In this document: one piece after another, positions 13,397 to 64,000 of the stretch
How positions within the stretch are numbered: the first letter of the stretch is position 1
How the letters are laid out: every line of letters starts with the position of its first letter
IMG/VR virus record: IMGVR_UViG_2706794668_000011
Source: a virus
Taxonomy: Duplodnaviria; Heunggongvirae; Uroviricota; Caudoviricetes
Reading direction: 5' to 3' (one strand)
DNA length: 64,000 bases
The notes under the pieces: generated by a model
What the model was told of the DNA's origin: nothing
Seen by the model: the letters and a program-made list of their open reading frames with translations, nothing else
Database searches by the model: none
Translations under genes and position numbers: made by a program

Positions 13397-13436
13397 AGCC
13401 TGCTTTAAAGAGAGTTTGAAGCAGGCTTTCTTTTAA
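13397..13436 (+). terminator. rho-independent terminator
   Basis: agcctgctt/aagcaggct stem followed by ttcttttaaa. Confidence 0.7.
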
Positions 13437-14542: not shown

Positions 14543-15136
14543 ATGATTGCAGCCGAAAAAATCAAACAGCGAAAGCGCGACAACTCTCTTCGTGACCTCT
14601 GGAGAACACCTGATTGGCTGTTTTCTGCCATTCAACGTTATCTTGGAGTGACATTTGATGTTGACGTTGCCTGCAACAAGGACAACGCAAAGCTGCCTAA
14701 TTTCATAGGCATTGAGCGTGATGCTTTGAAATCTGAATGGGGACAGCCAGGTACAATTGCCTTCCTCAATCCACCCTACTCCAAAATCTCCCCCTGGATT
14801 GATGCTGCTATACGTGAGCAGGCTCGCGGAGTTACTACAGTGATGCTAATTCCTCAATCCCTCGATACAAAGTGGTATGAGCGTGCAACAGAGTATGCGA
14901 ATGAGACGATTATTCTGTCTGGTGGCCGCGTAGCGTTTGTCGAGCCTGACGTCAATTTGGGTCAGGTAGAAGTAAACATCAACCCCGGTGGCAGTATGCT
15001 CGTTGTTTTTCGAGGATTCTGTCAGGACGCTGGGCACTCTATAAGCAAGATCCCTTTGGACGTCATGAAAAGTCTGGGAGGGTATGATCCTGCGAATGTG
15101 ATCAGGAAAAAAAGACCATCAAAGAAGGCTGCTTAG
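14543..15136 (+). CDS. dam: phage-type DNA N6-adenine methyltransferase (Dam-like)
   Basis: 197 aa; WRTPDWLF, FDVDVAC and LNPPYS motifs characteristic of the small phage Dam family. Confidence 0.8.
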   Translation: MIAAEKIKQRKRDNSLRDLWRTPDWLFSAIQRYLGVTFDVDVACNKDNAKLPNFIGIERDALKSEWGQPGTIAFLNPPYSKISPWIDAAIREQARGVTTVMLIPQSLDTKWYERATEYANETIILSGGRVAFVEPDVNLGQVEVNINPGGSMLVVFRGFCQDAGHSISKIPLDVMKSLGGYDPANVIRKKRPSKKAA

Positions 15137-15167
15137 TTTGTTCTGGCGTCTGTAATTAGCCTGCTTC

Positions 15168-15228
15168 TGTATATATATAAATAACTACATATTAATTATT
15201 AATATACGGAAGCAGGCTGTTTTGTATC
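15168..15228. repeat. long palindromic element, copy 1 (17-bp GC-clamped arms around an AT-rich loop)
   Basis: agcctgcttctgtatat ... atatacggaagcaggct; a near-identical arm sequence occurs at 40904-40959. Confidence 0.7.
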
Positions 15229-15323
15229 AGAGACTCCAGACCTGAACATCACTACAGAATCCACTAGACCCCCTTCCCAGACGCTTTAAAATCGATTTTA
15301 TGAACCACTTTAAGGAAACCAAC

Positions 15324-23651: not shown

Positions 23652-24752
23652 TCACACTGCGCGGAATGCGATTTCGCCAGGTATTACTTCACCTTGCCAA
23701 TACATTTGGGCAGCAACGCGATCTGCGAGGTCACGATAAATAGCCGTAAATTCGCTATCTGGACGACTAATAACGGTTGGTGTTCCGTTATCCAGATCTT
23801 CACGAAGAGAGATATGAAGTGGCATTTGGCCTAACAACTGCGTGTTGTATTTCTCGGCCAGTTTCTGTGCTCCACCGGTGCCAAAAATTGGCTCGTGATG
23901 ACCGCAGTTACTGCAAATATGCACACTCATGTTTTCAACGATACCCAGTACCGGCACTTCGACTTTTTCGAACATCACAATGCCTTTCTTCGCATCGATC
24001 AGCGCGATGTCTTGCGGCGTAGTTACCACAACCGCACCAGTTACAGGAATGTTCTGCGCCAGCGTCAATTGAATATCACCAGTGCCCGGTGGCATATCGA
24101 GAACGAGATAGTCCAGATCAGGCCACAGTGTTTCCTGCAACATCTGCATCAGCGCCTTGCTCGCCATCGGTCCACGCCACACCATTGCATTGTCATCGGT
24201 GACCAGATAACCAATAGAGTTGGTTGCCAGGCCATGAGACATGATAGGTGCCATGTGAGTACCGTCCGGTGAGGTTGGACGTTGGTTTTCCGCGCCCAGC
24301 ATGGTTGGAATTGATGGACCATAGATATCGGCATCCAAAATACCAACTTTCGCACCTTCAGCAGCCAAAGCCAGTGCCAAGTTTACTGCTGTGGAGGATT
24401 TACCCACGCCGCCCTTGCCTGAGCTGACGGCGATAATGTTCTTAACGCCATTAATGCCTGGTTGGTTTTTGACGCGCTTAAGCGTGGCAATGTTGTACGA
24501 CAGCTTCCAGTCAATAGCCTTTGCGCCAGTGATACGGAGCAGATCACCACTACATTGCTCTTTCAGGTCTTCAAAAGGCTTATTCCACACGAAAGGCATG
24601 ATTAGTTCGACATGCAGTGTGTCATCCATCAACGCAACATGGTGTAACGCTTTAAGCGTAGTCAAGTTGTGTTTCAGGGTTGGGTGCTGAAAATTAGCCA
24701 GCGTACCGGCTACCATTGCTCTCAGGGCATCCGGCGATTTGGACTCGCTCAT
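23652..24752 (-). CDS. apbC: Fe-S cluster carrier ATPase ApbC/Mrp, host-type
   Basis: 366 aa; very close match over the full length to enterobacterial Mrp as I remember it, including the deviant Walker A SGKGGVGKS and the CxxC motif. Confidence 0.9.
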   Translation of the reverse strand: MSESKSPDALRAMVAGTLANFQHPTLKHNLTTLKALHHVALMDDTLHVELIMPFVWNKPFEDLKEQCSGDLLRITGAKAIDWKLSYNIATLKRVKNQPGINGVKNIIAVSSGKGGVGKSSTAVNLALALAAEGAKVGILDADIYGPSIPTMLGAENQRPTSPDGTHMAPIMSHGLATNSIGYLVTDDNAMVWRGPMASKALMQMLQETLWPDLDYLVLDMPPGTGDIQLTLAQNIPVTGAVVVTTPQDIALIDAKKGIVMFEKVEVPVLGIVENMSVHICSNCGHHEPIFGTGGAQKLAEKYNTQLLGQMPLHISLREDLDNGTPTVISRPDSEFTAIYRDLADRVAAQMYWQGEVIPGEIAFRAV

Positions 24753-24909
24753 CCCGTCTCCTTTATTTTAATTTGCGCAATTGTCGCCTTGTAGTGTACT
24801 CCAGCTACGACATTTAATCATTTATGAGAAATGCTGTTATCACATGGCAGACATAAGGCCATTTTGTTACTATCAAGCCCCTTTTCACTACAAAGAAGTA
24901 ATGCCTACT

Positions 24910-26943
24910 ATGACCCAAGTCGCGAAGAAAATTCTGGTGACGTGCGCGCTGCCGTACGCTAACGGCTCAATCCACCTCGGCCATATGCTGGAGCACATCC
25001 AGGCTGATGTCTGGGTTCGTTACCAGCGAATGCGCGGCCACGAGGTTAATTTCATCTGTGCCGACGATGCCCACGGTACGCCAATCATGCTGAAAGCACA
25101 GCAGCTTGGTATCACACCGGAACAGATGATTGGCGAAATGAGTCAGGAACATCAGACTGATTTCGCAGGCTTTAACATCAGCTATGACAACTATCACTCG
25201 ACGCACAGCGAAGAGAACCGTCAGTTGTCCGAGCTTATCTACTCTCGCCTGAAAGAAAACGGTTTTATTAAAAACCGCACCATCTCACAGCTGTACGATC
25301 CGGAAAAATGCATGTTCCTGCCGGACCGTTTTGTAAAAGGCACCTGCCCGAAATGTAAATCCCCGGATCAATACGGCGATAACTGCGAAGTCTGCGGCGC
25401 GACCTACAGCCCGACTGAATTGATCGAGCCGAAATCGGTGGTTTCTGGCGCTACGCCGGTAATGCGTGATTCTGAACACTTCTTCTTTGATCTGCCCTCT
25501 TTCAGCGAAATGTTGCAGGCATGGACCCGCAGCGGTGCGTTGCAGGAGCAGGTGGCAAATAAAATGCAGGAGTGGTTTGAATCTGGCCTGCAACAGTGGG
25601 ATATCTCCCGCGACGCCCCTTACTTCGGTTTTGAAATTCCGAACGCGCCGGGCAAATATTTCTACGTCTGGCTGGACGCGCCGATTGGCTACATGGGTTC
25701 TTTCAAGAATCTGTGCGACAAGCGCGGCGACAGCGTAAGCTTCGACGAATACTGGAAGAAAGACTCCACCGCCGAGCTGTACCACTTCATCGGCAAAGAT
25801 ATCGTTTACTTCCACAGTCTGTTCTGGCCTGCCATGCTGGAAGGCAGCAACTTCCGCAAGCCGACCAACCTGTTTGTTCACGGCTATGTGACGGTGAACG
25901 GCGCGAAGATGTCCAAGTCTCGCGGCACCTTTATTAAAGCCAGCACCTGGCTGAATCATTTTGACGCTGACAGCCTGCGTTACTACTACACTGCGAAACT
26001 CTCTTCGCGCATTGATGATATCGATCTCAACCTGGAAGATTTCGTTCAGCGCGTGAATGCCGATATCGTGAACAAAGTGGTTAACCTGGCCTCCCGTAAT
26101 GCAGGCTTTATCAACAAGCGTTTTGACGGCGTGCTGACAAGCGAACTGGCTGACCCGCAACTGTACAAAACCTTTACTGATGCCGCTGAAGTGATTGGCG
26201 AAGCATGGGAAAGCCGCGAATTTGGTAAAGCTATCCGTGAAATCATGGCATTGGCTGACCTGGCTAATCGCTATGTCGATGAACAGGCTCCGTGGGTGGT
26301 GGCGAAGCAGGAAGGTCGCGATGCAGATCTGCAGGCGATTTGCTCTATGGGCATTAACCTGTTCCGCGTGCTGATGACGTACCTGAAACCGGTACTGCCG
26401 AAACTGACTGAACGTGCAGAAGCATTCCTGAATACAGAACTGACCTGGGATGGTATCCAGCAACCGCTTCTGGGCCATAAAGTGAATCCGTTCAAGGCAC
26501 TGTATAACCGTATCGATATGAAACAGGTGGAAGCACTGGTGGAAGCATCCAAAGAAGAAGTGAAAGCCACAGCTGCACCGGTAACTGGCCCACTGGCTGA
26601 CGAACCGATTCAGGAAACCATCACCTTTGACGACTTCGCCAAAGTTGACCTGCGTGTGGCGCTGATTGAAAACGCGGAGTTTGTCGAAGGTTCTGACAAA
26701 CTGCTTCGCCTGACGCTGGATCTCGGTGGTGAAAAGCGTAATGTCTTCTCAGGCATCCGTTCCGCTTATCCAGATCCACAGGCACTGATTGGTCGTCACA
26801 CCATTATGGTGGCTAACCTGGCACCACGTAAAATGCGCTTCGGTATCTCTGAAGGCATGGTGATGGCTGCCGGTCCTGGCGGGAAAGATATCTTCCTGTT
26901 AAGCCCGGATGCTGGTGCTAAACCTGGCCACCAGGTTAAGTAA
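24910..26943 (+). CDS. metG: methionyl-tRNA synthetase, host-type
   Basis: 677 aa from [10 protein letters not shown]; HLGH and KMSKS motifs, zinc knuckle CPKCK...CEVCG, C-terminal tRNA-binding domain; near-identical to E. coli MetG as remembered. The track ORF starting at 24781 is an upstream in-frame extension. Confidence 0.95.
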
Positions 26944-27027: not shown

Positions 27028-27050
27028 AAACAATTTGTTTTCTACCTTTT
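27028..27050. promoter_or_regulatory. motif A copy in reverse orientation; right copy of the 23-bp direct repeat
   Basis: aaacaatttgttttctacctttt identical to 23090-23112. Confidence 0.6.
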
Positions 27051-37435: not shown

Positions 37436-37462
37436 TATAATAAGTAAGTGATTACTTAGTGG
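37436..37462. promoter_or_regulatory. motif B variant (tataataagtaagtgattacttagtgg) in divergent promoter region
   Basis: taagta/tactta inverted repeat between helicase and ParB-like gene starts. Confidence 0.4.
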
Positions 37463-37476
37463 ATTGTAGCAATAAA

Positions 37477-38157
37477 ATGGACGTAAAAATCACGATTTTG
37501 CAGGTTGATGTTGCCAACCTTCGCCCGAATACCTGGAACACCAATTCGGTTGGTGCGCAGAATTTCGAAAAACTGAAAGGTTCTATCGAAAAATTGGGCT
37601 TTTTTAAGCCAATTTTGGCTCGTGAACTTGAAGATGGATTTTTTGAAATCCTCGGCGGCGAACATCGCTGGCGTGCCGCTATTGAGCAAGGAATTTCAAC
37701 GGTTCCAGTGCTTTCTGTGGGCAAAATTAGCGATGTCGTAGCTAAACAGATGTCACTGGTGGACAACGAGCGATACGGTGAAGACGACCAAATCGCATTG
37801 CAACGCTTCATTGAAGAAATTCAGTCAGAACTTGACTATCAACTGTCTGAAATCGCCCCGTATGACGACGAAATCTCGATGGTTTTAGCAAAAGAGGCGG
37901 CAATCGACCTTGAAGCACTGGAGGCGTTGTCTCGTGGTAGTGATGAGCCTGTCGATACCGACAAACGAGAGAAAACCGAACGTGTGGGGGCGGAACATCA
38001 GACCATGCGCTTCAAAGTAACTTTCGATGCGTCAGATCGTGTTGCAGAAACCATAAAAAACATCATCAAAGAGCAGGCTATTAACACCGGTAATGAAATG
38101 GAGAACGCTGGTGAGGCTCTGGTGTGGCTGGTCGACTACTACAAGGAGCGTATGTAA
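37477..38157 (+). CDS. ParB/Srx-fold protein 1
   Basis: N-terminal ParB-type motif LGGEHRWRAA; start taken at first ATG (the track ORF starts at GTG 37459). Confidence 0.6.
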   Translation: MDVKITILQVDVANLRPNTWNTNSVGAQNFEKLKGSIEKLGFFKPILARELEDGFFEILGGEHRWRAAIEQGISTVPVLSVGKISDVVAKQMSLVDNERYGEDDQIALQRFIEEIQSELDYQLSEIAPYDDEISMVLAKEAAIDLEALEALSRGSDEPVDTDKREKTERVGAEHQTMRFKVTFDASDRVAETIKNIIKEQAINTGNEMENAGEALVWLVDYYKERM

Positions 38158-38825
38158 TGACCAAAAAGTTTGAAATCGTATATCGCGACCCGGCAGATCT
38201 TATTCCCTATGAGATGAATGCCAAAAAGCATGATGAACAGCAGATCAGAGATCTGGCCGCAGCCATTAAAAAGCGCGGATTTGACCAGCCAATTACGGTC
38301 GATAAGAACGACGTAATTATTACTGGCCACGGCCGTCGTGAGGCTGCAATTTTTGCTGGACTTGAGCGTGTACCGGTTATTGTTCGCGATGATCTCAGTG
38401 ATGACGAGGTTCGTGCGAAGCGCCTTGAAGATAACCGACTTGCCAGCATTGATTACGATGCAATTAAGCTACAGAAAGAGCTTGAGTCGCTTGTTCTGGA
38501 CGATATCGAGGTTTTCGGCTTCGAAGAGCGTGAGTTGAATGTTCTCGTTGGCAGTATGACAGAAGAAATGGACACCGACTCGCTAGTTATCGATCTTGGC
38601 GAAGAAACTAAACGACAGAAGGATGAACACACCGAGATCAGTCGTGAAGTTGCAGCGGAAGAAGTACGTGTTGTCGACGTATTGGGCTTTAAAACGCTTC
38701 CTGCTGGCTCTGCCATTGTTGTTGGTGATTTGCTTGCCCACATGGAAGAAATGACGGGAGAAAGCGGGGTAGACGCATTTGTGGCATATGCGGAGAAAAT
38801 CTCTTCCGGGGAGATGGCTGCATGA
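38157..38825 (+). CDS. ParB/Srx-fold protein 2 (tandem paralogue)
   Basis: ParB-type motif ITGHGRREAA; RBS aaggag; ATG overlaps upstream stop. Confidence 0.65.
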   Translation: MTKKFEIVYRDPADLIPYEMNAKKHDEQQIRDLAAAIKKRGFDQPITVDKNDVIITGHGRREAAIFAGLERVPVIVRDDLSDDEVRAKRLEDNRLASIDYDAIKLQKELESLVLDDIEVFGFEERELNVLVGSMTEEMDTDSLVIDLGEETKRQKDEHTEISREVAAEEVRVVDVLGFKTLPAGSAIVVGDLLAHMEEMTGESGVDAFVAYAEKISSGEMAA

Positions 38826-39460
38826 GCAAATACATCATCAACGTATCGTTTCAGACACGCGTAAATAAAACCACGCGCACGTTGGAAATCGCTGAGTCGT
38901 TCGGGCTTGGCCTGGACGAAAAAGAGTGGACGCTTTACGACAATCTGGAGCTGGAAGTGAAGCAGGGCGATGTGGTGTACATCACCGGCCAATCCGGTTC
39001 CGGCAAATCCGTTGTGCTGCGCGAGTTGCAACGACAGATGAAGGATGAAGGGCTGTCTGTAGCCTCCATCGATGATTTTACCTTCGATAATGAGGTTAAC
39101 GTCATCGATCAGTTGGGCAAAACGACCAGTGATGCGCTTGGGTTGTTATCTATGGCTGGTCTGAACGATGCATATCTGTTTGTTCGCAAGCCTTCTGAAA
39201 TGTCAGACGGCCAGAAATATCGTCTCAAGATTGCCAAACTGATTGAGTCAGGCGCTAAAGTATGGGCTGCTGACGAGTTCGGCGCTGTTCTAGACCGTGT
39301 AACCGCTCAGGTTGTGGCGTCTAACCTCCAGCGTGCCGCTCGAAAGGTTGGTGCGACGGTAATGGTGGCGACGACTCACGAAGACCTGAAGAACGCGCTG
39401 CGCCCGGATATGCAGATCACCAAGCACTACAAAGAACGCGTGAAGGTGGAATATGCCTGA
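38822..39460 (+). CDS. ABC-type ATPase (nucleotide-binding-domain fold only)
   Basis: 212 aa; Walker A GQSGSGKS, signature-like SDGQKYR, Walker B VWAADEFG, H-loop TTHED; overlaps upstream stop. Confidence 0.6.
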   Translation: MSKYIINVSFQTRVNKTTRTLEIAESFGLGLDEKEWTLYDNLELEVKQGDVVYITGQSGSGKSVVLRELQRQMKDEGLSVASIDDFTFDNEVNVIDQLGKTTSDALGLLSMAGLNDAYLFVRKPSEMSDGQKYRLKIAKLIESGAKVWAADEFGAVLDRVTAQVVASNLQRAARKVGATVMVATTHEDLKNALRPDMQITKHYKERVKVEYA

Positions 39461-39707
39461 TTTGAAGATCGTAGAGCTGAAGCCATCGAAAGAGACTGAT
39501 AACAACAACGTGGAAGTCATCCGCCTGCTGGAAGAAGCACTTCAGCACGCCAGAGAAGGAAAAAGCCAGAGCCTGGCGCTGTTGATGATCAACAACGACG
39601 GCAGTGTTCTTGATTGCTGGCATAACGGCGGGCGCCCGTATGTCATGGTAGGGGCGATGGAGTCTCTTCGCCTGGATTTCATCAATGCCAATATCGAGCG
39701 CAGGTGA
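39453..39707 (+). CDS. hypothetical small protein
   Basis: 84-aa ORF overlapping upstream stop. Confidence 0.45.
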   Translation: MPDLKIVELKPSKETDNNNVEVIRLLEEALQHAREGKSQSLALLMINNDGSVLDCWHNGGRPYVMVGAMESLRLDFINANIERR

Positions 39708-39712
39708 TCGAC

Positions 39713-40603
39713 ATGGCAGATATCATCATCAAACGCTACCGCCCTGAAGAGTTTCCGCGTCATCTGGACTTTCTGGAGCGAATGACTGTCACAAAGGGAA
39801 CTGTAGAGGACTGGCACGCTCTTAAGTCGCTTCACTACAAAACAGACGGCAAACCTTTCGCGCCAACTTACTATCGCTGCGAACTTGATGACCGTCTGGT
39901 GGGCGTCGTGGTTATGGCTTACCCGAAACTACTGTTGGCACCTCGCCACCGCATGTTTCCTAAGTTGAAACCAACCACTAATACCACCGTAGCTAACCAG
40001 TACTGGGGTCGGTACGTGAATAACAACTTTGCGGTGATCAGTCGCTCAGTTGTGGATACTCAGTATCGTGGCGTAGGCGTCTCTTATCGAATGATTAACC
40101 TGGTTAGCAGGATGCATGACCGGCCAATCATTGAGATCCAGTCCTCGATGAGCAAATACAATCCCTTCGCCATGAAAGCAGGGTTTAAGTTCATCCGCCC
40201 TGAGCGACCGAAGAGCTATGAAAGTGCACTGCGTGTATTCCAGCGCCATTTCCGTTCCGACCCTGGTGATAACGAGGCGATCGTCAAAGAGTTGTTCGCA
40301 ATGAGCGAGTCTCGTCGTCGCCGTGCACTGCGTGATCTGGTGGCGGACTACCACAAGAACAGTTCCCTGGCAAAAGCTGGGCGGAATCGTGGCACGACGA
40401 TTCAGGACATTGCCGACAGTCTGGTGGACGAGGCCAGCATTGTGAAGCTGCTCAAGGACATTCACAACCTGAGCTTTACGTCTCCGTTGTATGGTGTGTA
40501 CCGAAACCCTGACTTTGGTCGTCGACTGCCTGACACGCTGCCACTGCTGGCATTCGACAAACAACCTTTGGATAAACCGTTAGAAATTGCTTTACCGGCA
40601 TAA
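39713..40603 (+). CDS. GNAT-like acyltransferase-fold protein with C-terminal extension
   Basis: 296 aa from ATG after aggtga; QYRGVGVSYRMI resembles the GNAT acyl-CoA-binding motif. Confidence 0.45.
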   Translation: MADIIIKRYRPEEFPRHLDFLERMTVTKGTVEDWHALKSLHYKTDGKPFAPTYYRCELDDRLVGVVVMAYPKLLLAPRHRMFPKLKPTTNTTVANQYWGRYVNNNFAVISRSVVDTQYRGVGVSYRMINLVSRMHDRPIIEIQSSMSKYNPFAMKAGFKFIRPERPKSYESALRVFQRHFRSDPGDNEAIVKELFAMSESRRRRALRDLVADYHKNSSLAKAGRNRGTTIQDIADSLVDEASIVKLLKDIHNLSFTSPLYGVYRNPDFGRRLPDTLPLLAFDKQPLDKPLEIALPA

Positions 40604-40612
40604 GGATTTGCC

Positions 40613-40879
40613 ATGACGTTAACCGACAAACAAAAGGACATCATCAAAACGCTCAATCTCGGTTATGAGCGAGGTCATCTACTTGATCTGGACGAATTGC
40701 TTGAAGTTTTGCCGTACAAGACAACCAAGCAAAGCATCCAGTTCTCAATTCGCGCTCTGATAAAAAAGGGGCTGGTGGAGAAAGGACATACGCGCCAACG
40801 CAGTGACAATCGCTATCACCGCCGGACTCTTGGGTTAACCACTTTAGGTCGAGCCAAAGCGAAGTTACTGGTGATGTAA
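40613..40879 (+). CDS. small winged-helix-like DNA-binding protein
   Basis: 88 aa, RBS aagga; basic C-terminal half; helix-turn-helix character inferred only. Confidence 0.4.
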   Translation: MTLTDKQKDIIKTLNLGYERGHLLDLDELLEVLPYKTTKQSIQFSIRALIKKGLVEKGHTRQRSDNRYHRRTLGLTTLGRAKAKLLVM

Positions 40880-40903
40880 TCGGTCTGGGAGCTTATTTAA
40901 AGA

Positions 40904-40959
40904 CCTGCTTCTGTATATATAAATAATAAGTAACTTATTAAATATATACAGAAGCAGGC
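40904..40959. repeat. long palindromic element, copy 2 (perfect 17-bp arms cctgcttctgtatatat)
   Basis: Perfect inverted repeat around a 22-nt AT-rich loop; same arm sequence as 15168-15228; sits between the wHTH gene and terS. Confidence 0.7.
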
Positions 40960-40993
40960 TTAGTAAGACATGCCCAGACCTAATTAAACACCC

Positions 40994-41010
40994 CAGAAAA
41001 CAAGTTGGTT
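40994..41010. promoter_or_regulatory. motif A copy (cagaaaacaagttggtt)
   Basis: First of two copies upstream of terS. Confidence 0.5.
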
Positions 41011-41021
41011 AGCATATGCAG

Positions 41022-41037
41022 TAAACAAGTTGTTTTA
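41022..41037. promoter_or_regulatory. motif A copy (taaacaagttgtttta)
   Basis: 39 nt upstream of terS ATG. Confidence 0.55.
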
Positions 41038-41075
41038 GAGCGCATGGACGCGCTCTGTGTGTTTTAGAGGGATCT

Positions 41076-41708
41076 ATGACGGTCGAAAAAGACGAGGTAA
41101 AAACTCGCCTGACACCAGCGGAGTGGGCCGAAGCTGAAGCCAAATGGACGTCAGGCGAATATACACTCTCAAAGCTGGAGGAAGAGTACGGCATTCGTCG
41201 TGAAACACTCTCCAGACATTTCAAAAAGCGAGGATTAGAGAAAGGCGCGGACTCTGTTGGGAAGATGGTTCGTGAGTCTCTTAAATCTGACGCAGAGCTT
41301 CGCGCTAAAGCCCGTGCGGAAAAGATAGAAGAACGTCGTACACGTTATGACGGCTGGGCGTATGCGTTGGGGCAGATGGTGATGGTCGAAGTCACTACGG
41401 CCAAACGTGAGGGTAAGCCTTTAGGGGCGATTGAGGATTCTCTCAAGAGCTTACAGAGAGCCAGTAATACTCTTGCAAAATGCTTTGAAGTTTCGTCCAA
41501 AGCATTGGGCATGGATCATGCGGAAAATGACGAGGAAGAAATTCCGAACCTGGTATTTGGTGAGCTTACGCCTTCCCAGGTGGCGAAATTACGTCAGGAA
41601 GACGACGAGCCTGAAATCATCGATGACGAATTGCTTGAGACGTTGGAAGAAGAAGCTCTAAGCGAATTTGATGCGACAGATGATGGAAGTGAAGGGGAGG
41701 ACGAATAA
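41076..41708 (+). CDS. terminase small subunit (putative)
   Basis: 210 aa; N-terminal HTH-like segment, acidic C-terminus; immediately precedes the large terminase. Confidence 0.65.
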   Translation: MTVEKDEVKTRLTPAEWAEAEAKWTSGEYTLSKLEEEYGIRRETLSRHFKKRGLEKGADSVGKMVRESLKSDAELRAKARAEKIEERRTRYDGWAYALGQMVMVEVTTAKREGKPLGAIEDSLKSLQRASNTLAKCFEVSSKALGMDHAENDEEEIPNLVFGELTPSQVAKLRQEDDEPEIIDDELLETLEEEALSEFDATDDGSEGEDE

Positions 41709-42964
41709 TGGCAATCCCGTCCTCGCTCAGTCTTGTGCAACTGCATTCTGGACAGATGAAAGTCTTCCAGTCTCCGCATCGATTTAAAGTTGTTTGTGCT
41801 GGTCGACGCTGGGGAAAATCCCGGTTGTCGATCTCCACTATTATTCGTGCGGCGGCAAAGGAAAAAAAGCAAAGAGTCTGGTATGTCGCTCCTACTTACC
41901 AGATGGCTCGCCAGATTTTGTGGGACGATCTACAGGAAGTTCTGCCTCGTAAGTGGGTTAGGAAAAAGAACGACACCACGATGACAATCGTGTTGAAGAA
42001 CGGTTCGGAGATCGCCCTCAAAGGTGCTGATAAGCCTGACACTCTGCGCGGCGTAGCGTTGCATTTTGTAGTGCTTGATGAATTTCAGGATATGAAGGCT
42101 GACACCTGGTACAAGGTGTTACGACCTACTCTTTCATCGACACGCGGCGGTGCACTGATCATTGGTACGCCAAAAGGCTTCTCGGAATTTCACAAACTGT
42201 GGACTATAGGCCAGAACGTAGAGCTGCAAAGAAAGGGACAGTGGAAGAGCTGGCAGTTTGTAACTGCCGATTCTCCGTTTGTACCTACGGCGGAAATTGA
42301 AGCTGCTAAGAACGATATGGACCCGAAATCGTTCGCTCAGGAGTACCTGGCGAGCTTTGAGAACATGTCCGGGCGCGTTTACTACCCGTTCGATCGTAAC
42401 GTGCATGTAAAACCGCTTCAGTTCAACCCTCGGTTGCCTATATGGGTAGGGCAGGACTTCAACATTGACCCGATGTCTTCAGTAATTTTGCAACCTCAGC
42501 CAAATGGTGAGCTATGGGCAATTGATGAATTGGTGCTCTTTTCCTCTAACACGGCAGAAGTTTGTGATGAGCTTGAGAGACGCTTCTGGCGCTGGAAATC
42601 ACAGGTAACGGTATTTCCAGATCCGGCAGGTGCTTATCGCCAACATGCTCGTGGGGAGTCTGACGTAGACATATTCAAAGAGAAGGGATTCTTACGTGTC
42701 GATTATTCGAAAAAGCACCCGCCAATTGCGGATCGTGTTAATGCTGTTAACCGAATGCTGATGTCCGCATCTGGAGATATCCGGCTGTATATCGATCCGA
42801 AGTGCAAGCATTTGATTGATTCACTGGAAAAAGTCATCTACAAGCCTGGAACACGAGATATGGATAAGACAGGTGGCATTGAGCATAGTGCAGACGCATT
42901 GGGCTATCCAGTACATCGTAGGTATCCAGTAAAAAATCGTGTTATTCTTGGTGGTTCTCGATAG
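41708..42964 (+). CDS. terminase large subunit
   Basis: 418 aa; Walker A CAGRRWGKS, Walker B VVLDEF, C-terminal nuclease-like acidic motifs. Confidence 0.8.
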   Translation: MAIPSSLSLVQLHSGQMKVFQSPHRFKVVCAGRRWGKSRLSISTIIRAAAKEKKQRVWYVAPTYQMARQILWDDLQEVLPRKWVRKKNDTTMTIVLKNGSEIALKGADKPDTLRGVALHFVVLDEFQDMKADTWYKVLRPTLSSTRGGALIIGTPKGFSEFHKLWTIGQNVELQRKGQWKSWQFVTADSPFVPTAEIEAAKNDMDPKSFAQEYLASFENMSGRVYYPFDRNVHVKPLQFNPRLPIWVGQDFNIDPMSSVILQPQPNGELWAIDELVLFSSNTAEVCDELERRFWRWKSQVTVFPDPAGAYRQHARGESDVDIFKEKGFLRVDYSKKHPPIADRVNAVNRMLMSASGDIRLYIDPKCKHLIDSLEKVIYKPGTRDMDKTGGIEHSADALGYPVHRRYPVKNRVILGGSR

Positions 42965-57690: not shown

Positions 57691-57706
57691 TCAAGGATTT
57701 TTGGAC

Positions 57707-60700
57707 ATGGAACAGTTCAAGAAGAAAAAGTTACCTCTATTAATTGCAGGTTCTGGTGGCAAAAAAAGTAGCAAAAGCTCTAGTCGCACACCAGTTGAAG
57801 CAGACGATACCGTAAATTCTCGTGCTATGGCCTCTATTCTCGATCTTCTTGGAGAAGGCGTAATTGGCGGCTTGGTAAATGGCGCAAGATCTATTTTTGT
57901 CGACGATTTGCCCATAGTAAATGAAGACGGCTCTTCAAACTTTAGCGGAATTTCATGGGATTTTCGAGACGGCTCGCAAGACCAGACACCAATGTCTGGC
58001 TTTGATTTCGTCGAAACACCTAAATCGATCAATATCCAACTAAAGAAATCGCATTATGTGACGGTTTCAATAGATAACGATGAGGCCGATCGTGTTCGAG
58101 TCATCATGAAGTTCCCTTCTCTGCGAAGAATAGACCAAAAAACGGGTGATACAAACGGCACTACCGTTGAGTATAAGTTCCAGATCTCAAATGGAGATTC
58201 AACATTTGTAGATGTGGTCGCAGAAGGTGAAAAAAACGTTGGTATTAAGTTAACAGCGAAGAAAACCGGTGCTTATTATCGTAGTTATGAGCTGAAGTTA
58301 CCCAAGCCAGGTCGGGCATACAGTGTTCGAGTAGTTCGTATTACTGATGATAACAGCGGTCAGTATCTTTATAACGATACATGGGTGGACTCAATCGGTG
58401 AGATCGTTGATACACCGATGAACTACCCAAACTCTGCGTTGGTGGGACTGAAGGTTAATTCTGAGCAGTTTGGCGGCTCTATGCCTTCTCGTTCCTATCT
58501 GGTGCGGGGATTAAAAATTCGCGTACCATCAAACTACAACGAGGCTAGCAACACTTATGATGGCGTATGGGATGGCTCTTTTAAGCTGTTGTCATCTTCA
58601 AACCCTGCGTGGATTCTCTTCGACTTGCTTACCAATTCTCGATATGGGCTTGGTCAGTATGTGTCGGAATCTATGATTGATCTCGGCCAACTGTACCAGA
58701 TCGGTCGATATTGTGACGAAGAGGTTGATGATGGCTTTGGTGGTAAAGAGAAACGCTTTGCAATCAATACGCAGATCACCAGTAGACAGGATGCATACCG
58801 ACTAATTCAGGATATTGCCGGTGCATTCCGCGGCATGGTGTTTTGGGCTGGTGGCATGGTTAACATCATGCAGGATAGCCCATCAGATCCAGTAATGATG
58901 TTTACCAACTCGAACGTCAAAGATGGATTGTTTACCTATAAAGGTTCTGCGCGTAAAGATCGCCCATCCGTTGCGCTCGTAACCTACAACAACAAGGAGG
59001 ACGGTTATAAGCAAAACATTGAGTACGTTGAAGATCAGGACGCAATGCGCCGTTATGGTGAGCGTAAAACAGAAGTCGTAGCATTTGGATGTACAAGCCG
59101 AGGCCAGGCTCACCGAGTTGGTTTGTGGCTTTTGTATACCGCCAGAATGGAGTCGGATGTAATTACATTTACTGCCGGTTTAGACGCCTCATTTCTGATG
59201 CCCGGTGAAACCGTTCTGATTCAGAACAAATATCGTGCAGGTAAACGTAACTCCGGTCGAATTGTGGAGTTTACCAAAAACAGCATCACTCTCGATGCGC
59301 CTGTGTCGTTAGCTAAAAGCGGCAGCTTTATTCGGATATTGAATCAGGAAGGCAAAATCGTTGAACGCGATGTTCTTGAAACTGGCGAAAACATAACAAA
59401 GGTTACGTTTTCAAAAGCTCTGTCGTCAGCGGAAACGCCTGTTTTGAACGGTGTATGGACAATCACAGAACCAGATCTCGAACCTATGCGCGTTCGCATC
59501 GTTAACATCGCTCAGGGGGAAACGTCGGGTAGCTTTGACATCACCGCTGTTGAGAACAATCCGTCTAAATATGAGGCAATCGACAATGGTGCAACGCTTA
59601 TCCCGCAGAATACGACGGTATTGGACCCGACTTACTCCAAGCCGTCTAATTTGCAAATCACCGAAGGGACTTATCTCTCAAGCCCAGGCAACCTGTCAGT
59701 AAAACTGACTGCAACATGGGAAGGGAAATCTCCAGAGTATTGGATCAGTTGGCGACGTTCTGATGAAAACAATGTATCGAACTGGCAATCGGCACGTGTA
59801 ACCGAAGAGCAATACGAAATCGTTAATGTCGCGGAGAATGGACGCTACGACTTCCAACTGTATGCGGTTTCATTCAACGGTAAAAAAACAGAGATTATCA
59901 GTACCGTTTATCAGGTGCTGGGCACAATGACACCGCCGGATGCACCAACGTCATTAACGGCCGTTGGAGACTATCGTAATGTGATACTGAATTGGGTTAA
60001 TCCAGATTCGGTAGACCTTGATCACATTAATGTTTACGCATCCCAGACCAACAATCTGGATACGGCGAAACTGATCGCAGAGTCTGCAAGCACCACCTTT
60101 ACACATTCTGGTCTTGGGGATAGTGAAACTTGGTATTACTGGGTTAGATCAGCAAATAAGCGTGGCATGTTGAGTCGCCCAAACTCAAATCTTGGTACAG
60201 AGGCCACAACGCGAGATGTTCTTTCATTTTTAGCCAATAAAATTACCTCGTCAGAACTTGGCCAGGCTTTAAATGAGGAAATTGACAGTAAGGCTTCTCA
60301 ACAAGCTGTTGATGAAATCAATAATCATATCGATCAGAGCGTCGAATCTCTGGAAGGTGAAATTTCCGCATTAAATAAGGAGCTAACGAGTAGTATCGAT
60401 GAGTTCAAAACATCGTTTACTGAACGCAGCGAGACACTGGAGAATGCGCAAAGCGAGCTTAGAACGGAAGTTTCTAGCACTCGGGAAAAAGTAGATGATG
60501 CATTACGACAAGTTGAAAATTCAAATGCAGCACTTATTGAACTACGTAATACAGTATCAAAACAAGGTGATTCTGTTGCTGGTGTCGTAGAAGCAGCAAA
60601 TGCGGCACTTGAAAATGCATCATCTTTAATTGCCGAAGAGCGTAAAGTTCGTGCACAAGCAGATCTAGCGAATGCTAAAAAGATAGAAACGATGAGATCA

Positions 60701-62413
60701 TCGGTTGATGAAAGTGTTGCGGCTGTAGAAGAAATGCGGAGAACGGTTGCTGAGGTAGGAAGAGTAAGTTCAGAAATCACAACTAATCTTGAAGCCATTT
60801 CTAAGACAAATATCGATCTTGCGTTGCGGCAGGACGAAGATCAGCACAGACAGCTGGTAAATAACGCGAAAATTGCCACGACTCAAAAGATTCTTGTCGA
60901 TGATGTGTCAGCAATGGCGTCTAAGGTTGAAGAGATACGAGCCGAGATTGGTGACAACATTCGAGCATCTATTCTCGAAGAAGCGACAGCCAGAACTGAT
61001 GGTGATAATGCGTTAGCCAATCGTGTGACACAATTACAGAGTAAATTTGAAGGTGATATCAGTGCCGCAATAAGGACCGAACAATCTGCAAGAGCATCGG
61101 CCAATGAGACTCTTTCAAAGCAGATCACACAACTGGAGTCTAAAGTAAATACTGATATTTCAACCGCTATTAGAGAAGAGCAACAAACAAGAGCAACGCA
61201 AGATGAAGCATTATCAAGGCAAATAACTCAACTTCAAACAAAAGTTAATAACGATATATCTGCTGCTATTAAAAGTGAGCAACAAGCGCGAGTTAGCGGC
61301 GATTCAGCGTTATCCACACAAATTAATCAATTGCAGGCAAAAGTAGATGATGACATATCAGCTGCTATTAATGAGGAAAGAGAAGCCAGAGCATCAGGCG
61401 ATAGTGCACTATCAAGAGAAGTTAGTAGTTTAAAAACAAAAACAGGTAAAGACATTGCAGCGGCGGTAGCAGTTGAAACCAAAGCAAGAACTGACGCTAA
61501 CGATGCATTATCCAGACAAATTTCTTCTCTTACTACGAGGGCTAATAATCTTCAGTCCTCGATAGAGCGAGAATCGACATCTCGTACAAGTCAGGATTCT
61601 GCCATTGCAAAAGACTTGGCAAGTTTTAAAACAAAAACTGCTAAGGATATAAGTGCAGCTGTTGCGGTTGAAACTCAAGCAAGAGCTGCCGCTGATACCG
61701 CATTGACGTCGCAGATTAACTCACTAAAGACACAAACAGGTAAAGATATAAAGGCTGCTGTAGCAGAAGAGACGAAAGCCAGAACTGATGCTGATGCAGC
61801 GCTTTCGACAAGGGTAACTAATCTCCAGTCGCAAACAACAAATTATATCAATGCAGCGATTACGTCAGAGTCAAAGGCCAGAACAAGTGCAGACAACGCT
61901 CTAGGAAAACGAATTGATACACTGAAAGCGTCTGTAGATGGAAATGTTGCCGTTATTCAGCAGCAGGCTTCTGCTATAGCTGACGCTAATAGAAAAGTAT
62001 CAACCTCGTACACATTGAAGATGGAAACTTCAACGAGTGGTGGGCAGAAGTATGTAGCGGGCATTGCGCTGGGTATTGATACAACGGGGCTTTCTCAGTT
62101 TTTGGTGCGGGCAGATCGATTTGGTTTGGTCAACAATGTTAATGGGAAGATCACAACGCCATTTGTTATCGAAAACAGCGTTGCGTATATGAACGGTGCT
62201 TATATCAAAGATGGCACTATCACAAACGCAAAGGTAGGTGACTTACAATCAACAAACTTCGTAAGAGGACGAGCCGGATGGAGATTTGGCAAAAACGGAA
62301 CGCTTGAGATTAACGGTAACAGTGGAGGAAATGGGAGATTAGTTATCAATGGGCAGAGAATCGACGTTTACGACGACAATAATGTACTCAGGGTAAGAAT
62401 TGGTCGACTTTGA
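57707..62413 (+). CDS. central tail fibre / host-specificity protein, lambda gpJ-like, with C-terminal coiled-coil repeat extension
   Basis: ~1568 aa; position after I-like gene; FN3-like middle region; ~10 periodic ~29-aa repeats (DISAAI..EQQAR..D.ALS.QI.QL) encoded at about 60990-61940. Confidence 0.85.
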   Translation: MEQFKKKKLPLLIAGSGGKKSSKSSSRTPVEADDTVNSRAMASILDLLGEGVIGGLVNGARSIFVDDLPIVNEDGSSNFSGISWDFRDGSQDQTPMSGFDFVETPKSINIQLKKSHYVTVSIDNDEADRVRVIMKFPSLRRIDQKTGDTNGTTVEYKFQISNGDSTFVDVVAEGEKNVGIKLTAKKTGAYYRSYELKLPKPGRAYSVRVVRITDDNSGQYLYNDTWVDSIGEIVDTPMNYPNSALVGLKVNSEQFGGSMPSRSYLVRGLKIRVPSNYNEASNTYDGVWDGSFKLLSSSNPAWILFDLLTNSRYGLGQYVSESMIDLGQLYQIGRYCDEEVDDGFGGKEKRFAINTQITSRQDAYRLIQDIAGAFRGMVFWAGGMVNIMQDSPSDPVMMFTNSNVKDGLFTYKGSARKDRPSVALVTYNNKEDGYKQNIEYVEDQDAMRRYGERKTEVVAFGCTSRGQAHRVGLWLLYTARMESDVITFTAGLDASFLMPGETVLIQNKYRAGKRNSGRIVEFTKNSITLDAPVSLAKSGSFIRILNQEGKIVERDVLETGENITKVTFSKALSSAETPVLNGVWTITEPDLEPMRVRIVNIAQGETSGSFDITAVENNPSKYEAIDNGATLIPQNTTVLDPTYSKPSNLQITEGTYLSSPGNLSVKLTATWEGKSPEYWISWRRSDENNVSNWQSARVTEEQYEIVNVAENGRYDFQLYAVSFNGKKTEIISTVYQVLGTMTPPDAPTSLTAVGDYRNVILNWVNPDSVDLDHINVYASQTNNLDTAKLIAESASTTFTHSGLGDSETWYYWVRSANKRGMLSRPNSNLGTEATTRDVLSFLANKITSSELGQALNEEIDSKASQQAVDEINNHIDQSVESLEGEISALNKELTSSIDEFKTSFTERSETLENAQSELRTEVSSTREKVDDALRQVENSNAALIELRNTVSKQGDSVAGVVEAANAALENASSLIAEERKVRAQADLANAKKIETMRSSVDESVAAVEEMRRTVAEVGRVSSEITTNLEAISKTNIDLALRQDEDQHRQLVNNAKIATTQKILVDDVSAMASKVEEIRAEIGDNIRASILEEATARTDGDNALANRVTQLQSKFEGDISAAIRTEQSARASANETLSKQITQLESKVNTDISTAIREEQQTRATQDEALSRQITQLQTKVNNDISAAIKSEQQARVSGDSALSTQINQLQAKVDDDISAAINEEREARASGDSALSREVSSLKTKTGKDIAAAVAVETKARTDANDALSRQISSLTTRANNLQSSIERESTSRTSQDSAIAKDLASFKTKTAKDISAAVAVETQARAAADTALTSQINSLKTQTGKDIKAAVAEETKARTDADAALSTRVTNLQSQTTNYINAAITSESKARTSADNALGKRIDTLKASVDGNVAVIQQQASAIADANRKVSTSYTLKMETSTSGGQKYVAGIALGIDTTGLSQFLVRADRFGLVNNVNGKITTPFVIENSVAYMNGAYIKDGTITNAKVGDLQSTNFVRGRAGWRFGKNGTLEINGNSGGNGRLVINGQRIDVYDDNNVLRVRIGRL

Positions 62414-62442
62414 TTATGGAAAAAAATATTTTTATCGATAAT

Positions 62443-62466
62443 AATAGGTAGTTACATACTTAATGG
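62443..62466. promoter_or_regulatory. motif B copy (aataggtagttacatacttaatgg)
   Basis: Between J-like stop and Stf-like start; followed by hairpin 62465-62485. Confidence 0.45.
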
Positions 62467-62507: not shown

Positions 62508-64000
62508 ATGTGGTACAGGGAAGGTACTATCACATTTACACAAGGCAGCAATACTCTGGTTGGTGCTGGGACAGCATGGAACGTTACGGCCAATGGTGTG
62601 TTGCCTGGCATGATTGTCGTCGCACCTGATAATAAATTGTATGAAATTAAAAGCGTAACAAATGACACAACCTTAACGTTGGTTGAAAACTATACTGGTG
62701 AAACGCAAAGTGATATACCATGTAGGATCATCACTACCTACGAAGGAGATTTGACACAGTTTAGTGCGAGATTTACGGCTCTTTTATCACGAATGTCTGG
62801 TGATGCAAAAACAGTTCGAAATTGGTTAACTGCCGTAGATGAAGTTACTCTTGAGCGAGAAGATGGCACTAATGTTAATGTAAAACCTCTTTCTAAGATT
62901 ATCGCGGAGCATAATAAGCACGTAGAATGGTATGAAAATAATACTAACGCAATTAATTCCGCAGGAGATAAAGCAAAACAGGCTGCGGCCAGTGCGTCGG
63001 CTGCGGCGAAGAGTGCGAATCTAGCAAGCAGTAAGGCTACTCAGGCATCTAATAGTGCGTTGGATGCTACAGCGTCTAAAAATGCAGCAAATAAAAGTGC
63101 ATCAAGTGCTAAAGCATCAGAAACAAGTGCTTTAGAGGCGAAGAACGCAGCTGCAATTTCTGCATCAACAGCTTCCACTAAGGCAACAGAAGCCACAAGT
63201 TCGGCTAATGCTGCGTTGGTCTCTAAAGAGGCTGCAAAATTATCTGAAATGAATGCTGCTTCTGGTGCTGGCAGTGCATCAACTTCTGCAAATCAGGCTA
63301 GAGAGTCGGCAAGGTCTGCGAAGACATCCGCTAATCAGGCTTCAACTTATGCGTCTGCTGCTAGAGCTTCGAAGGATGAAGCTAGCCGAAAGTCTGCTGA
63401 AGCCTCAACTAGTGCTAGTAACGCATCATCGAAATCAGCTGAATCTGCGGCTAAAGCAGAAGAAGCAAAGCAAAGCCAAACATCAGCACTTGCATCGGCA
63501 GAGCGTGCAGAGATAGCTGCTACTAGAGCAGAAAGAGCTTTGTCAGCGATATCATTACATGATGCCAGTTTGACTATGAAGGGTATTGTCAAATTAAGCA
63601 GTGAGACGAGCAGTTCGTCAGAAGAATTTGCAGCAACACCAAAAGCAGTAAAGGCTGCGTTTGATCTTGCTAAATCAAAATATACTGCAAATGACGCGAC
63701 AACTTCACAAAAAGGGCTGGTTCAATTAAGTAGCGATACAAATAACGCCTCTGAATCATTGGCCGCAACAACAAAAGCGGTTAAAAGTGTAAAGGATCTT
63801 GCTGATAGAAAAGCAGCAATCAACAGCCCAGCATTTACTGGCACACCAACGGCACCAACGGCGACTCAAGGCACTAATAATACGCAAATTGCCACAACTG
63901 CTTATGTAAGAGAAGCGATCTCAGGTCTTGTAGGATCATCACCTGAAGCGCTTGATACTCTTAATGAGTTGGCAAGGGCTTTGGGTGATGATCCCGATTT
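62508..64000 (+). CDS. side tail fibre protein, lambda Stf-like (3' end beyond window)
   Basis: RBS aaggag; open to the window end; Ala/Ser-rich repeats and KGLVQLSS...AATTKAVK...SPAFTGTPTAPTA..GTNNTQIATTAYV...PEALDTLNELA segment closely parallel lambda Stf as remembered. Confidence 0.8.
   Translation, partial: MWYREGTITFTQGSNTLVGAGTAWNVTANGVLPGMIVVAPDNKLYEIKSVTNDTTLTLVENYTGETQSDIPCRIITTYEGDLTQFSARFTALLSRMSGDAKTVRNWLTAVDEVTLEREDGTNVNVKPLSKIIAEHNKHVEWYENNTNAINSAGDKAKQAAASASAAAKSANLASSKATQASNSALDATASKNAANKSASSAKASETSALEAKNAAAISASTASTKATEATSSANAALVSKEAAKLSEMNAASGAGSASTSANQARESARSAKTSANQASTYASAARASKDEASRKSAEASTSASNASSKSAESAAKAEEAKQSQTSALASAERAEIAATRAERALSAISLHDASLTMKGIVKLSSETSSSSEEFAATPKAVKAAFDLAKSKYTANDATTSQKGLVQLSSDTNNASESLAATTKAVKSVKDLADRKAAINSPAFTGTPTAPTATQGTNNTQIATTAYVREAISGLVGSSPEALDTLNELARALGDDPD

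Follow-up and report, generated by a model that had tools for sequence, protein, structure and literature searches.

The two long palindromes in this window (the whole stretch of 64,000 nucleotides of viral DNA that was analysed), and a third copy outside it, are best explained as the cores of long RNA 3′-end hairpins that would insulate three co-oriented operons of a phage-plasmid. Copies A and C would act as terminators, and copy B would be a hairpin of the same kind without a U-tract. We put the probability of this reading at about one half. It builds on the anatomy of the element, its placement after stop codons, its orientation, the distribution of U-tracts, its conservation, and the terminators found at the same positions in a distant group of relatives; from these features we infer that transcripts end or are processed at the hairpins.

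Anatomy of the palindromes

Copy B occupies 40904-40958 on the + strand, the orientation of nearly all genes in the window. Its 17-nt arms (40904-40920 and 40942-40958; CCTGCTTCTGTATATAT) pair perfectly, as an earlier note on this DNA had stated, and enclose an AT loop of 21 nt that is itself nearly palindromic and has a 7-bp stem of its own. This core lies within a larger hairpin (40881-40981, + strand) that is closed by an outer stem, GGTCTGGG at 40882-40889 with CCCAGACC at 40973-40980, and that begins 2 nt past the stop codon of an 88-aa gene. No U-tract follows copy B: the sequence is CTTAGTAAG past the inner stem and TAATTAAAC past the outer one.

The core of copy A lies at 15158-15218 (+ strand). 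The earlier note had reported this palindrome correctly, including a single arm position that is not a Watson-Crick pair (T.G, between AGCCTGCTTCTGTATAT and ATATACGGAAGCAGGCT), but had set its coordinates 10 too high, at 15168-15228. A T-rich tail, GTTTTGTATC (15219-15228, + strand), follows directly 3′ of the core and has the form of a terminator-type U-tract on the sense strand; in the window the hairpin is thus followed by GTTTTGT in the sense direction. The extended hairpin of copy A (15141-15242, + strand) has a degenerate outer pair, TTCTGG at 15141-15146 with CTCCAGACC at 15234-15242, and starts 5 nt past the stop codon (15134-15136) of dam, the N6-adenine methyltransferase gene (14543-15136, + strand) that is the last gene before it. 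Copies A and B stand in direct orientation 25.7 kb apart, as had been noted before.

A shorter hairpin with the same GC clamp (AGCCTGCTT/AAGCAGGCT) is present, as also previously described, at 13397-13436 on the + strand, 3′ of a 3′-5′ exonuclease gene (site D). The hairpin itself spans 13397-13427, with an A-run before it and the T-run TTTCTTTT after it. To judge from its sequence, it is an ordinary intrinsic terminator of bidirectional shape.

Chance is excluded as the origin of these repeats, since the arm matches far exceed both expectation and shuffled sequence: the 17-mer has four matches in the window at up to three mismatches (0.11 expected; four reached by 0 of 100 shuffles), and its 9-mer core has six (0.56 expected). 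The DNA folding z-scores of the two cores are -9.7 and -8.1. Folded as RNA, extended copy B reaches -55.3 kcal/mol (z -10.3) and copy A -42.4 kcal/mol (z -5.7). The predicted helix comprises 17 bp plus an upper stem of 7-8 bp, inside a longer compound hairpin of about 85 nt (copy A) up to about 125 nt (copy B). Rfam 15 covariance models gave no family match at gathering score anywhere in the window.

The general layout is the same at every site: a stop codon, GGTCTGGGAG (in which TCTGG is invariant), about 12 nt, the 55-bp core, a short tail and CCCAGAC(C). The distance from the stop codon to the start of the extended hairpin ranges from 2 to 12 nt across sites. The outer motif GTCTGGGAG, taken as a genome-wide binding motif, showed no enrichment outside the elements. 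It also occurs at 15072-15080, within the coding region of dam and 88 nt upstream of copy A, which is probably a coincidence, as the Klebsiella homologue differs there. The outer inverted repeat, the third full copy outside the window and the family-wide presence described below go beyond what the earlier note had recognised.

Two further symmetric sequences were seen near the end of the window: an AT-rich overlapping palindrome at 62408-62463, just past the end of a 1570-aa ORF (57701-62413), and an inverted repeat at 63933-63994 (22 nt, 86% complementary, with an 18-nt spacer).

Family, distribution and conservation

By megablast, the regions of both palindromes are 97-99.9% identical to Escherichia phages CMS-2020a, PhiR41_1 and Cyrano (= pLF82) and about 79% identical to Salmonella phage SSU5. 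Over 501 nt around copy B the identity to a Shigella sonnei plasmid is 100%, and this stretch has matches in 826 plasmids of PLSDB, among them plasmids from Klebsiella, Escherichia, Enterobacter, Yersinia and Salmonella. These identities place the window in a phage-plasmid of the SSU5 type, about 108 kb in size. The phage-plasmid also carries host-like genes, apbC (- strand, 23652-24752) and metG for methionine--tRNA ligase (24781-26943), according to the annotation of NZ_CP020118.

In NZ_CP020118, which is a complete relative, the long palindrome occurs three times: copy A follows dam, copy B precedes terS, and copy C, at a site beyond the window, stands 3′ of the partition operon and 5′ of the DnaB module. 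The search of related genomes proposed in the earlier note thus revealed an element that is family-wide and occupies three syntenic sites. All 122 elements collected (120 IMG/VR scan stretches plus other loci) fall at these three intergenic sites, bar one extra full copy that an E. albertii plasmid carries at a fourth site, and their orientation relative to the sense strand is identical in all but one. The three-site synteny spans plasmids of Escherichia, Salmonella, Klebsiella, Enterobacter, Citrobacter, Cronobacter and Yersinia. Among 5,426 complete E. coli genomes, 256 were positive, with 393 places on plasmids and 0 on chromosomes; among phage records, 12 of 50,697 match, every one SSU5-like. 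The element is therefore confined to the SSU5-like plasmid family. None of the annotated records inspected carries an annotation for it, and it is undescribed so far. Mobility by way of "unrelated" plasmids (H76-H78) was considered and rejected, the matches there being truncated or recombinant SSU5-like segments.

Core identity between lineages is about 93% (some 4 of 55 positions differ), compared with 75-88% in the flanks, and the loop is conserved too. The arms of copy B are perfect in the window, in SSU5 and in pMT1. For Yersinia pMT one match place is reported in the record, a perfect copy B, and copies A and C appear absent or diverged. Pairing of the flanks, measured against shuffled flanks, is strongest at site B (z -2 to -7), followed by A (z -1.8 to -3.9), and is weaker at C. 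One lineage (locus L027) retains the outer pairing with another sequence, AACTGGAGT / ACTCAGTT. By comparison, SSU5 and Klebsiella pJN2-26 have unrelated hairpins in place of the terminator at site D. In more distant relatives (Xenorhabdus, Moellerella, other Klebsiella groups), a GC-clamped or AT-rich hairpin of different sequence lies between the 88-aa gene and terS, and some of these hairpins have no T-run.

At site C of NZ_CP020118 (55943-55997; 5943-5997 in locus L006) the whole 55-bp core is inverted in situ beside an inserted gene for a KAP-family NTPase, and the left flank of this site bears differing cargo across genomes. Read from these comparisons, the palindrome at site C marks a cargo-variable boundary and is able to flip like small hairpin-flanked inversions.

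Probable transcript ends at the three sites

Copies A and B each form a stable, GC-containing hairpin 3′ of + strand genes and co-oriented with them. They differ in what follows. Counting unique variants, and defining a T-rich tail as at least five T in 8 nt on the sense strand after the stem, we found such a tail after the inner stem in 17 of 22 variants at site A and 18 of 20 at site C. At site B it followed either stem in 3 of 24 variants and was absent from the other 21. The terminator scan did not call copy B, and there is no U-tract on either strand. Copies A and C look like intrinsic terminators. The earlier suggestion that the palindromes are bidirectional terminators thus holds in part: a terminator fits copy A and the hairpin at 13397, but copy B is not canonical on either strand, and "bidirectional" applies only to 13397. 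Papers on Cyrano and LF82 give no terminator maps.

A more distant group of relatives, that of K. pneumoniae pL3995-2 (TerS about 60% identical), is informative in this regard. Of the cores at sites A and C the left half is gone and only the right half remains (TTAAATATATATAGGAGCCAGGC, conserved across seven contigs), with a canonical terminator a short way downstream. At site A of pL3995-2 this half-core has gained another pairing partner downstream, so that the two enclose the terminator, and a T8 run follows; site B has a degenerate hairpin and then a long T-run. These plasmids therefore carry a terminator at all three positions, even though the sequence of the palindrome is not kept.

Arm positions that depart from Watson-Crick pairing were U.G on the + strand in 30 cells at five positions and A.C in 7 cells at two positions. 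This excess leans weakly toward a constraint at the RNA level, the asymmetry not being significant because the sequences are related and the independent events too few.

When the + strand is transcribed, each copy would fold as a long compound hairpin within a few bases of a stop codon, copy A ending the dam operon, copy B the ParB_N/ABC-ATPase operon and copy C the partition operon. At A and C the inner GC clamp followed by a U-tract should cause RNA polymerase to terminate as at an ordinary intrinsic terminator. Termination there would shield the next module from read-through: RNase H onward in the case of A, DnaB and the replication genes in the case of C. Copy B, lacking the U-tract, would probably be only a pause or weak stop, or a hairpin for 3′-end protection or processing; its predicted helix of about 27 bp would be of RNase III size.

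That copy B keeps its hairpin without a U-tract points to selection for the hairpin rather than for canonical termination. Beyond the latter, copy B may serve pausing, 3′-end protection, RNase III processing or the recognition of DNA by a protein. The conserved core, set against the outright replacement of the terminator at site D, would also fit recognition of a specific sequence by a protein.

In several respects these hairpins match intrinsic terminators. They are GC-clamped, lie directly 3′ of a stop codon on the sense strand, have a U-tract at A, C and 13397, and are represented by canonical terminators at sites A and C of the distant relative. They depart from that class in their AT-rich and much longer stem (17 bp and an upper stem of 8 bp), set in a compound hairpin that can reach about 125 nt, in the conservation of sequence and loop from genus to genus, in the presence of three copies per genome, and in that copy B lacks the class-defining U-tract. 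The early and late mRNAs of T7 have RNase III processing hairpins between gene clusters, and the likeness extends to the repetition of similar long intercistronic hairpins in one phage genome, to a helix in the RNase III range and to the fact that no U-tract is required. However, the sites of T7 are marked by a characteristic internal loop and belong to one long transcript, whereas copy B is followed by a presumed operator or promoter region of its own, and RNase III processing is here a candidate function.

The region from copy B to terS

Copy B follows the last gene of a conserved five-gene operon (37459-40879) directly upstream of terS. The operon encodes two ParB_N-domain proteins, an ABC-type ATPase, a 299-aa protein labelled by PHROGs as an ABC ATP-binding subunit, and the 88-aa protein (40613-40879, + strand; phrog_900), which has weak winged-helix similarity. 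Its synteny persists out to relatives in Xenorhabdus and Moellerella, and packaging aid, defence or partition are candidate roles. The end of copy B is 118 nt from the start of terS (41076-41708, + strand; phrog_867), in line with the earlier placement of this copy just upstream of that gene. terL follows at 41708-42964 (+ strand; Terminase_6N / Terminase_3). The best solved relative of TerL is the ATPase domain of P74-26 TerL, with the T4 enzyme also among the nearest. Searches of Pfam, NCBIfam and PDB with TerS and the 88-aa protein yielded no informative family.

Two tandem copies of a 13-bp palindromic motif found genome-wide, AAACAAsTTGTTT, lie between copy B and terS at 40998-41010 and 41023-41035 (+ strand). 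We presume that 40998-41035 is the operator or promoter region of the late operon, separate from the palindrome. Downstream of these operator-like repeats and 9 nt before the terS start codon lies a small canonical terminator-like hairpin, GAGCGC-loop-GCGCTC with a U-run (41036-41057, + strand; with TGTGTTTT to 41067). Read-through from copy B toward the late genes would be stopped here. The hairpin and TGTGTTTT sit 5′ of the terS ribosome-binding site and are conserved in SSU5 and pMT1. The pL3995-2 group has an equivalent hairpin without the U-run, whereas its site B has one. The layout of repeats and hairpin ahead of terS resembles pR′-tR′ of lambda, and by this analogy the late operon might be controlled by antitermination.

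AAACAAsTTGTTT occurs 16 times in the window (1.75 expected), often preceded by AGA and mostly 25-75 nt 5′ of + strand start codons. The positions include 7408, 17624, 18353, 23090, 27028, 27079, 27965, 29526, 30011, 30913, 31678, 40998 and 41023, the pair at 27028/27079 being inverted. NZ_CP020118 has about 20 such sites, one of them upstream of parA at g53099. The motif has the look of an operator for a global regulator, or else of a promoter element specific to the phage, and its dispersal is comparable in logic to that of the C1 operators of P1.

Packaging

It is conceivable, although we consider it rather unlikely, that copy B has a dual use. A palindrome of terminator type would have been kept there without its U-tract because it acts, as duplex or cruciform DNA and together with the CCCAGAC repeats, as a site recognised by a phage protein. 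The small terminase, the 88-aa winged-helix protein and the ParB_N proteins are candidates for this recognition. If so, copy B would mark the start of packaging or a ParB-type loading site, and all three copies together would act in cis as a dispersed system, much as the centromeres of N15 do.

Less probable is that copy B belongs, by itself or jointly with A and C, to a pac region recognised by the small terminase, its AT-rich palindrome and CCCAGAC-type repeats being the site of terminase assembly and of the first cut of a headful series. Copy B does lie, 118 nt 5′ of terS, in the usual place of pac and cos sites, and it retains a strong hairpin without a U-tract; more distant relatives (Moellerella, Xenorhabdus, other Klebsiella groups) also carry a hairpin before terS, of different sequence. 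The type of TerL is compatible with this reading, as the Terminase_6N / Terminase_3 families include headful packagers, and headful packaging tolerates several pac sites. There is likewise a resemblance to pacL-pacC-pacR of SPP1 and cosN-cosB of lambda, in that copy B is near terS and the repeats GGTCTGGG / CCCAGACC / CCCAGAA flank a symmetric AT-rich centre. Copy B, however, is not a unique site, as the same element also stands after dam and after the par operon, two unrelated operon ends, with U-tracts that are terminator-like. NZ_CP020118 has three equivalent copies rather than a single site per genome. Three copies at distances of 26-47 kb cannot be reconciled with a cos mechanism, since three cos sites could not coexist with unit-length packaging.

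The records of SSU5 (GenBank JQ965645 / NC_018843) and Cyrano (OV696614) have position 1 inside the palindrome of copy B, exactly where its loop meets its right arm, the Cyrano record following that of SSU5; at first sight this looks like mapped ends. We rejected these record origins as indicators of virion ends, because contigs of draft assemblies often stop in or next to the palindrome, at A and C as well as at B. One draft contig (L075) starts in the loop of A and another (L051) in the loop of C, and breaks occur at B as well; the draft loci that break in or beside the palindromes include L051, L075, L076 and L022. Breaks of assembly at all three sites explain the record starts, and the records of PhiR41_1 and p4727 start elsewhere. 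Being 55 bp long, repeated and at the same time inverted, the element can be expected to break assembly graphs, and it is a systematic assembly breakpoint for SSU5-type plasmids. Cyrano is the re-annotated plasmid pLF82, with no end mapping reported, and among the papers found none reports virion ends for the family; a literature search on termini, palindromes or centromeres of SSU5, pHCM2 or pMT1 turned up nothing relevant. The proposal of a pac or cos site at copy B, also made in the earlier note, thus gained no support: near-identical copies end two other operons, and the record starts are matched by contig breaks.

Partition, replication and other readings

Improbable as well is that the palindromes are dispersed centromere-like or ParB-loading duplex sites, bound by the small partner of a type Ib ParA or by the two ParB_N proteins encoded just upstream of copy B. 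In most genomes parA (type Ib, NF041546) and the gene for its 117-aa partner immediately precede copy C, although A and B are not adjacent to this pair, and copy B directly follows the operon with two ParB_N proteins and two ABC-type ATPases. Arms and loop are conserved above the flanks, there are three copies per replicon, and no iterons that might serve as an alternative centromere were found upstream of parA. N15 offers a precedent, with dispersed inverted repeats as its centromere, one beside the partition genes and others close to genes of the lytic cycle. The likeness is that few copies of one inverted repeat are scattered over a phage-plasmid, one of them by the partition genes. The repeats of N15, however, are short palindromes that bind a SopB-type protein, whereas here a type Ib ATPase with a small partner is accompanied by a 55-bp palindrome with sense-strand U-tracts, and binding is only putative. 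A centromere would have no use for T-rich sense-strand tails. Moreover, mismatches in the arms are tolerated, and the pL3995-2 group has half a palindrome at two of three sites. In Yersinia pMT copy B is perfect, but A and C seem to be missing or diverged; pMT1 partitions by a P1-type system.

We hold it equally improbable that the element serves replication or recombination by forming a cruciform or hairpin of DNA, be it as a lytic-phase origin or unwinding element, as a programmed target of the phage's own SbcCD-like nuclease or as a recombination hotspot at module boundaries. The AT-rich centre, GC clamps and flanking inverted short repeats do resemble origin palindromes, and the phage encodes its own helicase, DnaE, ligase and SbcCD-like pair. 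The flipped core beside the KAP NTPase insert and the cargo-variable left flank at site C also suit a recombination site. However, no initiator gene adjoins the sites, three origins would be unusual, and 55 bp is short for SbcCD cleavage in vivo. Insertion of cargo beside terminators is common and needs no special site, and the orientation bias and sense-strand U-tracts point to transcription.

Least probable is a non-functional or selfish repeat, a single terminator copied by gene conversion and kept similar by concerted evolution and palindrome self-correction: arm alleles are shuffled between sites (for instance, CCTGCGTCTG serves as a left arm at site B, and at Klebsiella site A its complement forms the right arm) and the E. 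albertii plasmid has its extra full copy at a fourth site, but the three sites are syntenic across genera, the 5,426 E. coli genomes hold 0 chromosomal copies, there are no target-site duplications, and flank pairing is maintained with different sequences, as in the L027 pair given above. Like REP/BIME and ERIC sequences, the element is an imperfect palindrome in 3′ untranslated regions, a class able to stabilise upstream mRNA. It differs from them in having three copies in one plasmid family, none on E. coli chromosomes and no sequence similarity. Nor does it behave as a host-wide mobile repeat (MITE, REP or ERIC), as 393 of 393 E. coli places are on plasmids and the copies are syntenic.

Two recognisable motifs in the palindromes were also set aside. 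The arms hold the half-sites CTGTATAT / ATATACAG of a LexA box, but by inspection the spacing in the duplex is wrong for CTGT-N8-ACAG. A T4-type late promoter, TATAAATA, where the left arm meets the loop, was judged a by-product of the (TA)n-AAATA sequence; we know of no gp55-like factor in the SSU5-type family.

Significance for SSU5-type phage-plasmids

SSU5-type phage-plasmids are common, with the element in 256 of 5,426 complete E. coli genomes and 826 PLSDB plasmids matching the site-B region, and they carry resistance genes (PMC9600943). Their regulation, packaging and partition sites are essentially unmapped. In this respect the element is an annotation landmark for three module boundaries, and it explains both the fixed breaks in assemblies and the start point of the SSU5 reference record. 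Were copy B to prove a pac or ParB loading site, it would be the first cis-acting maintenance or packaging site of the family. As a family of terminators, which is the reading we prefer, the palindromes would represent ordinary biology in an unusual and strongly conserved shape, and the element is a candidate insulator that may silence the lytic genes in the plasmid state.
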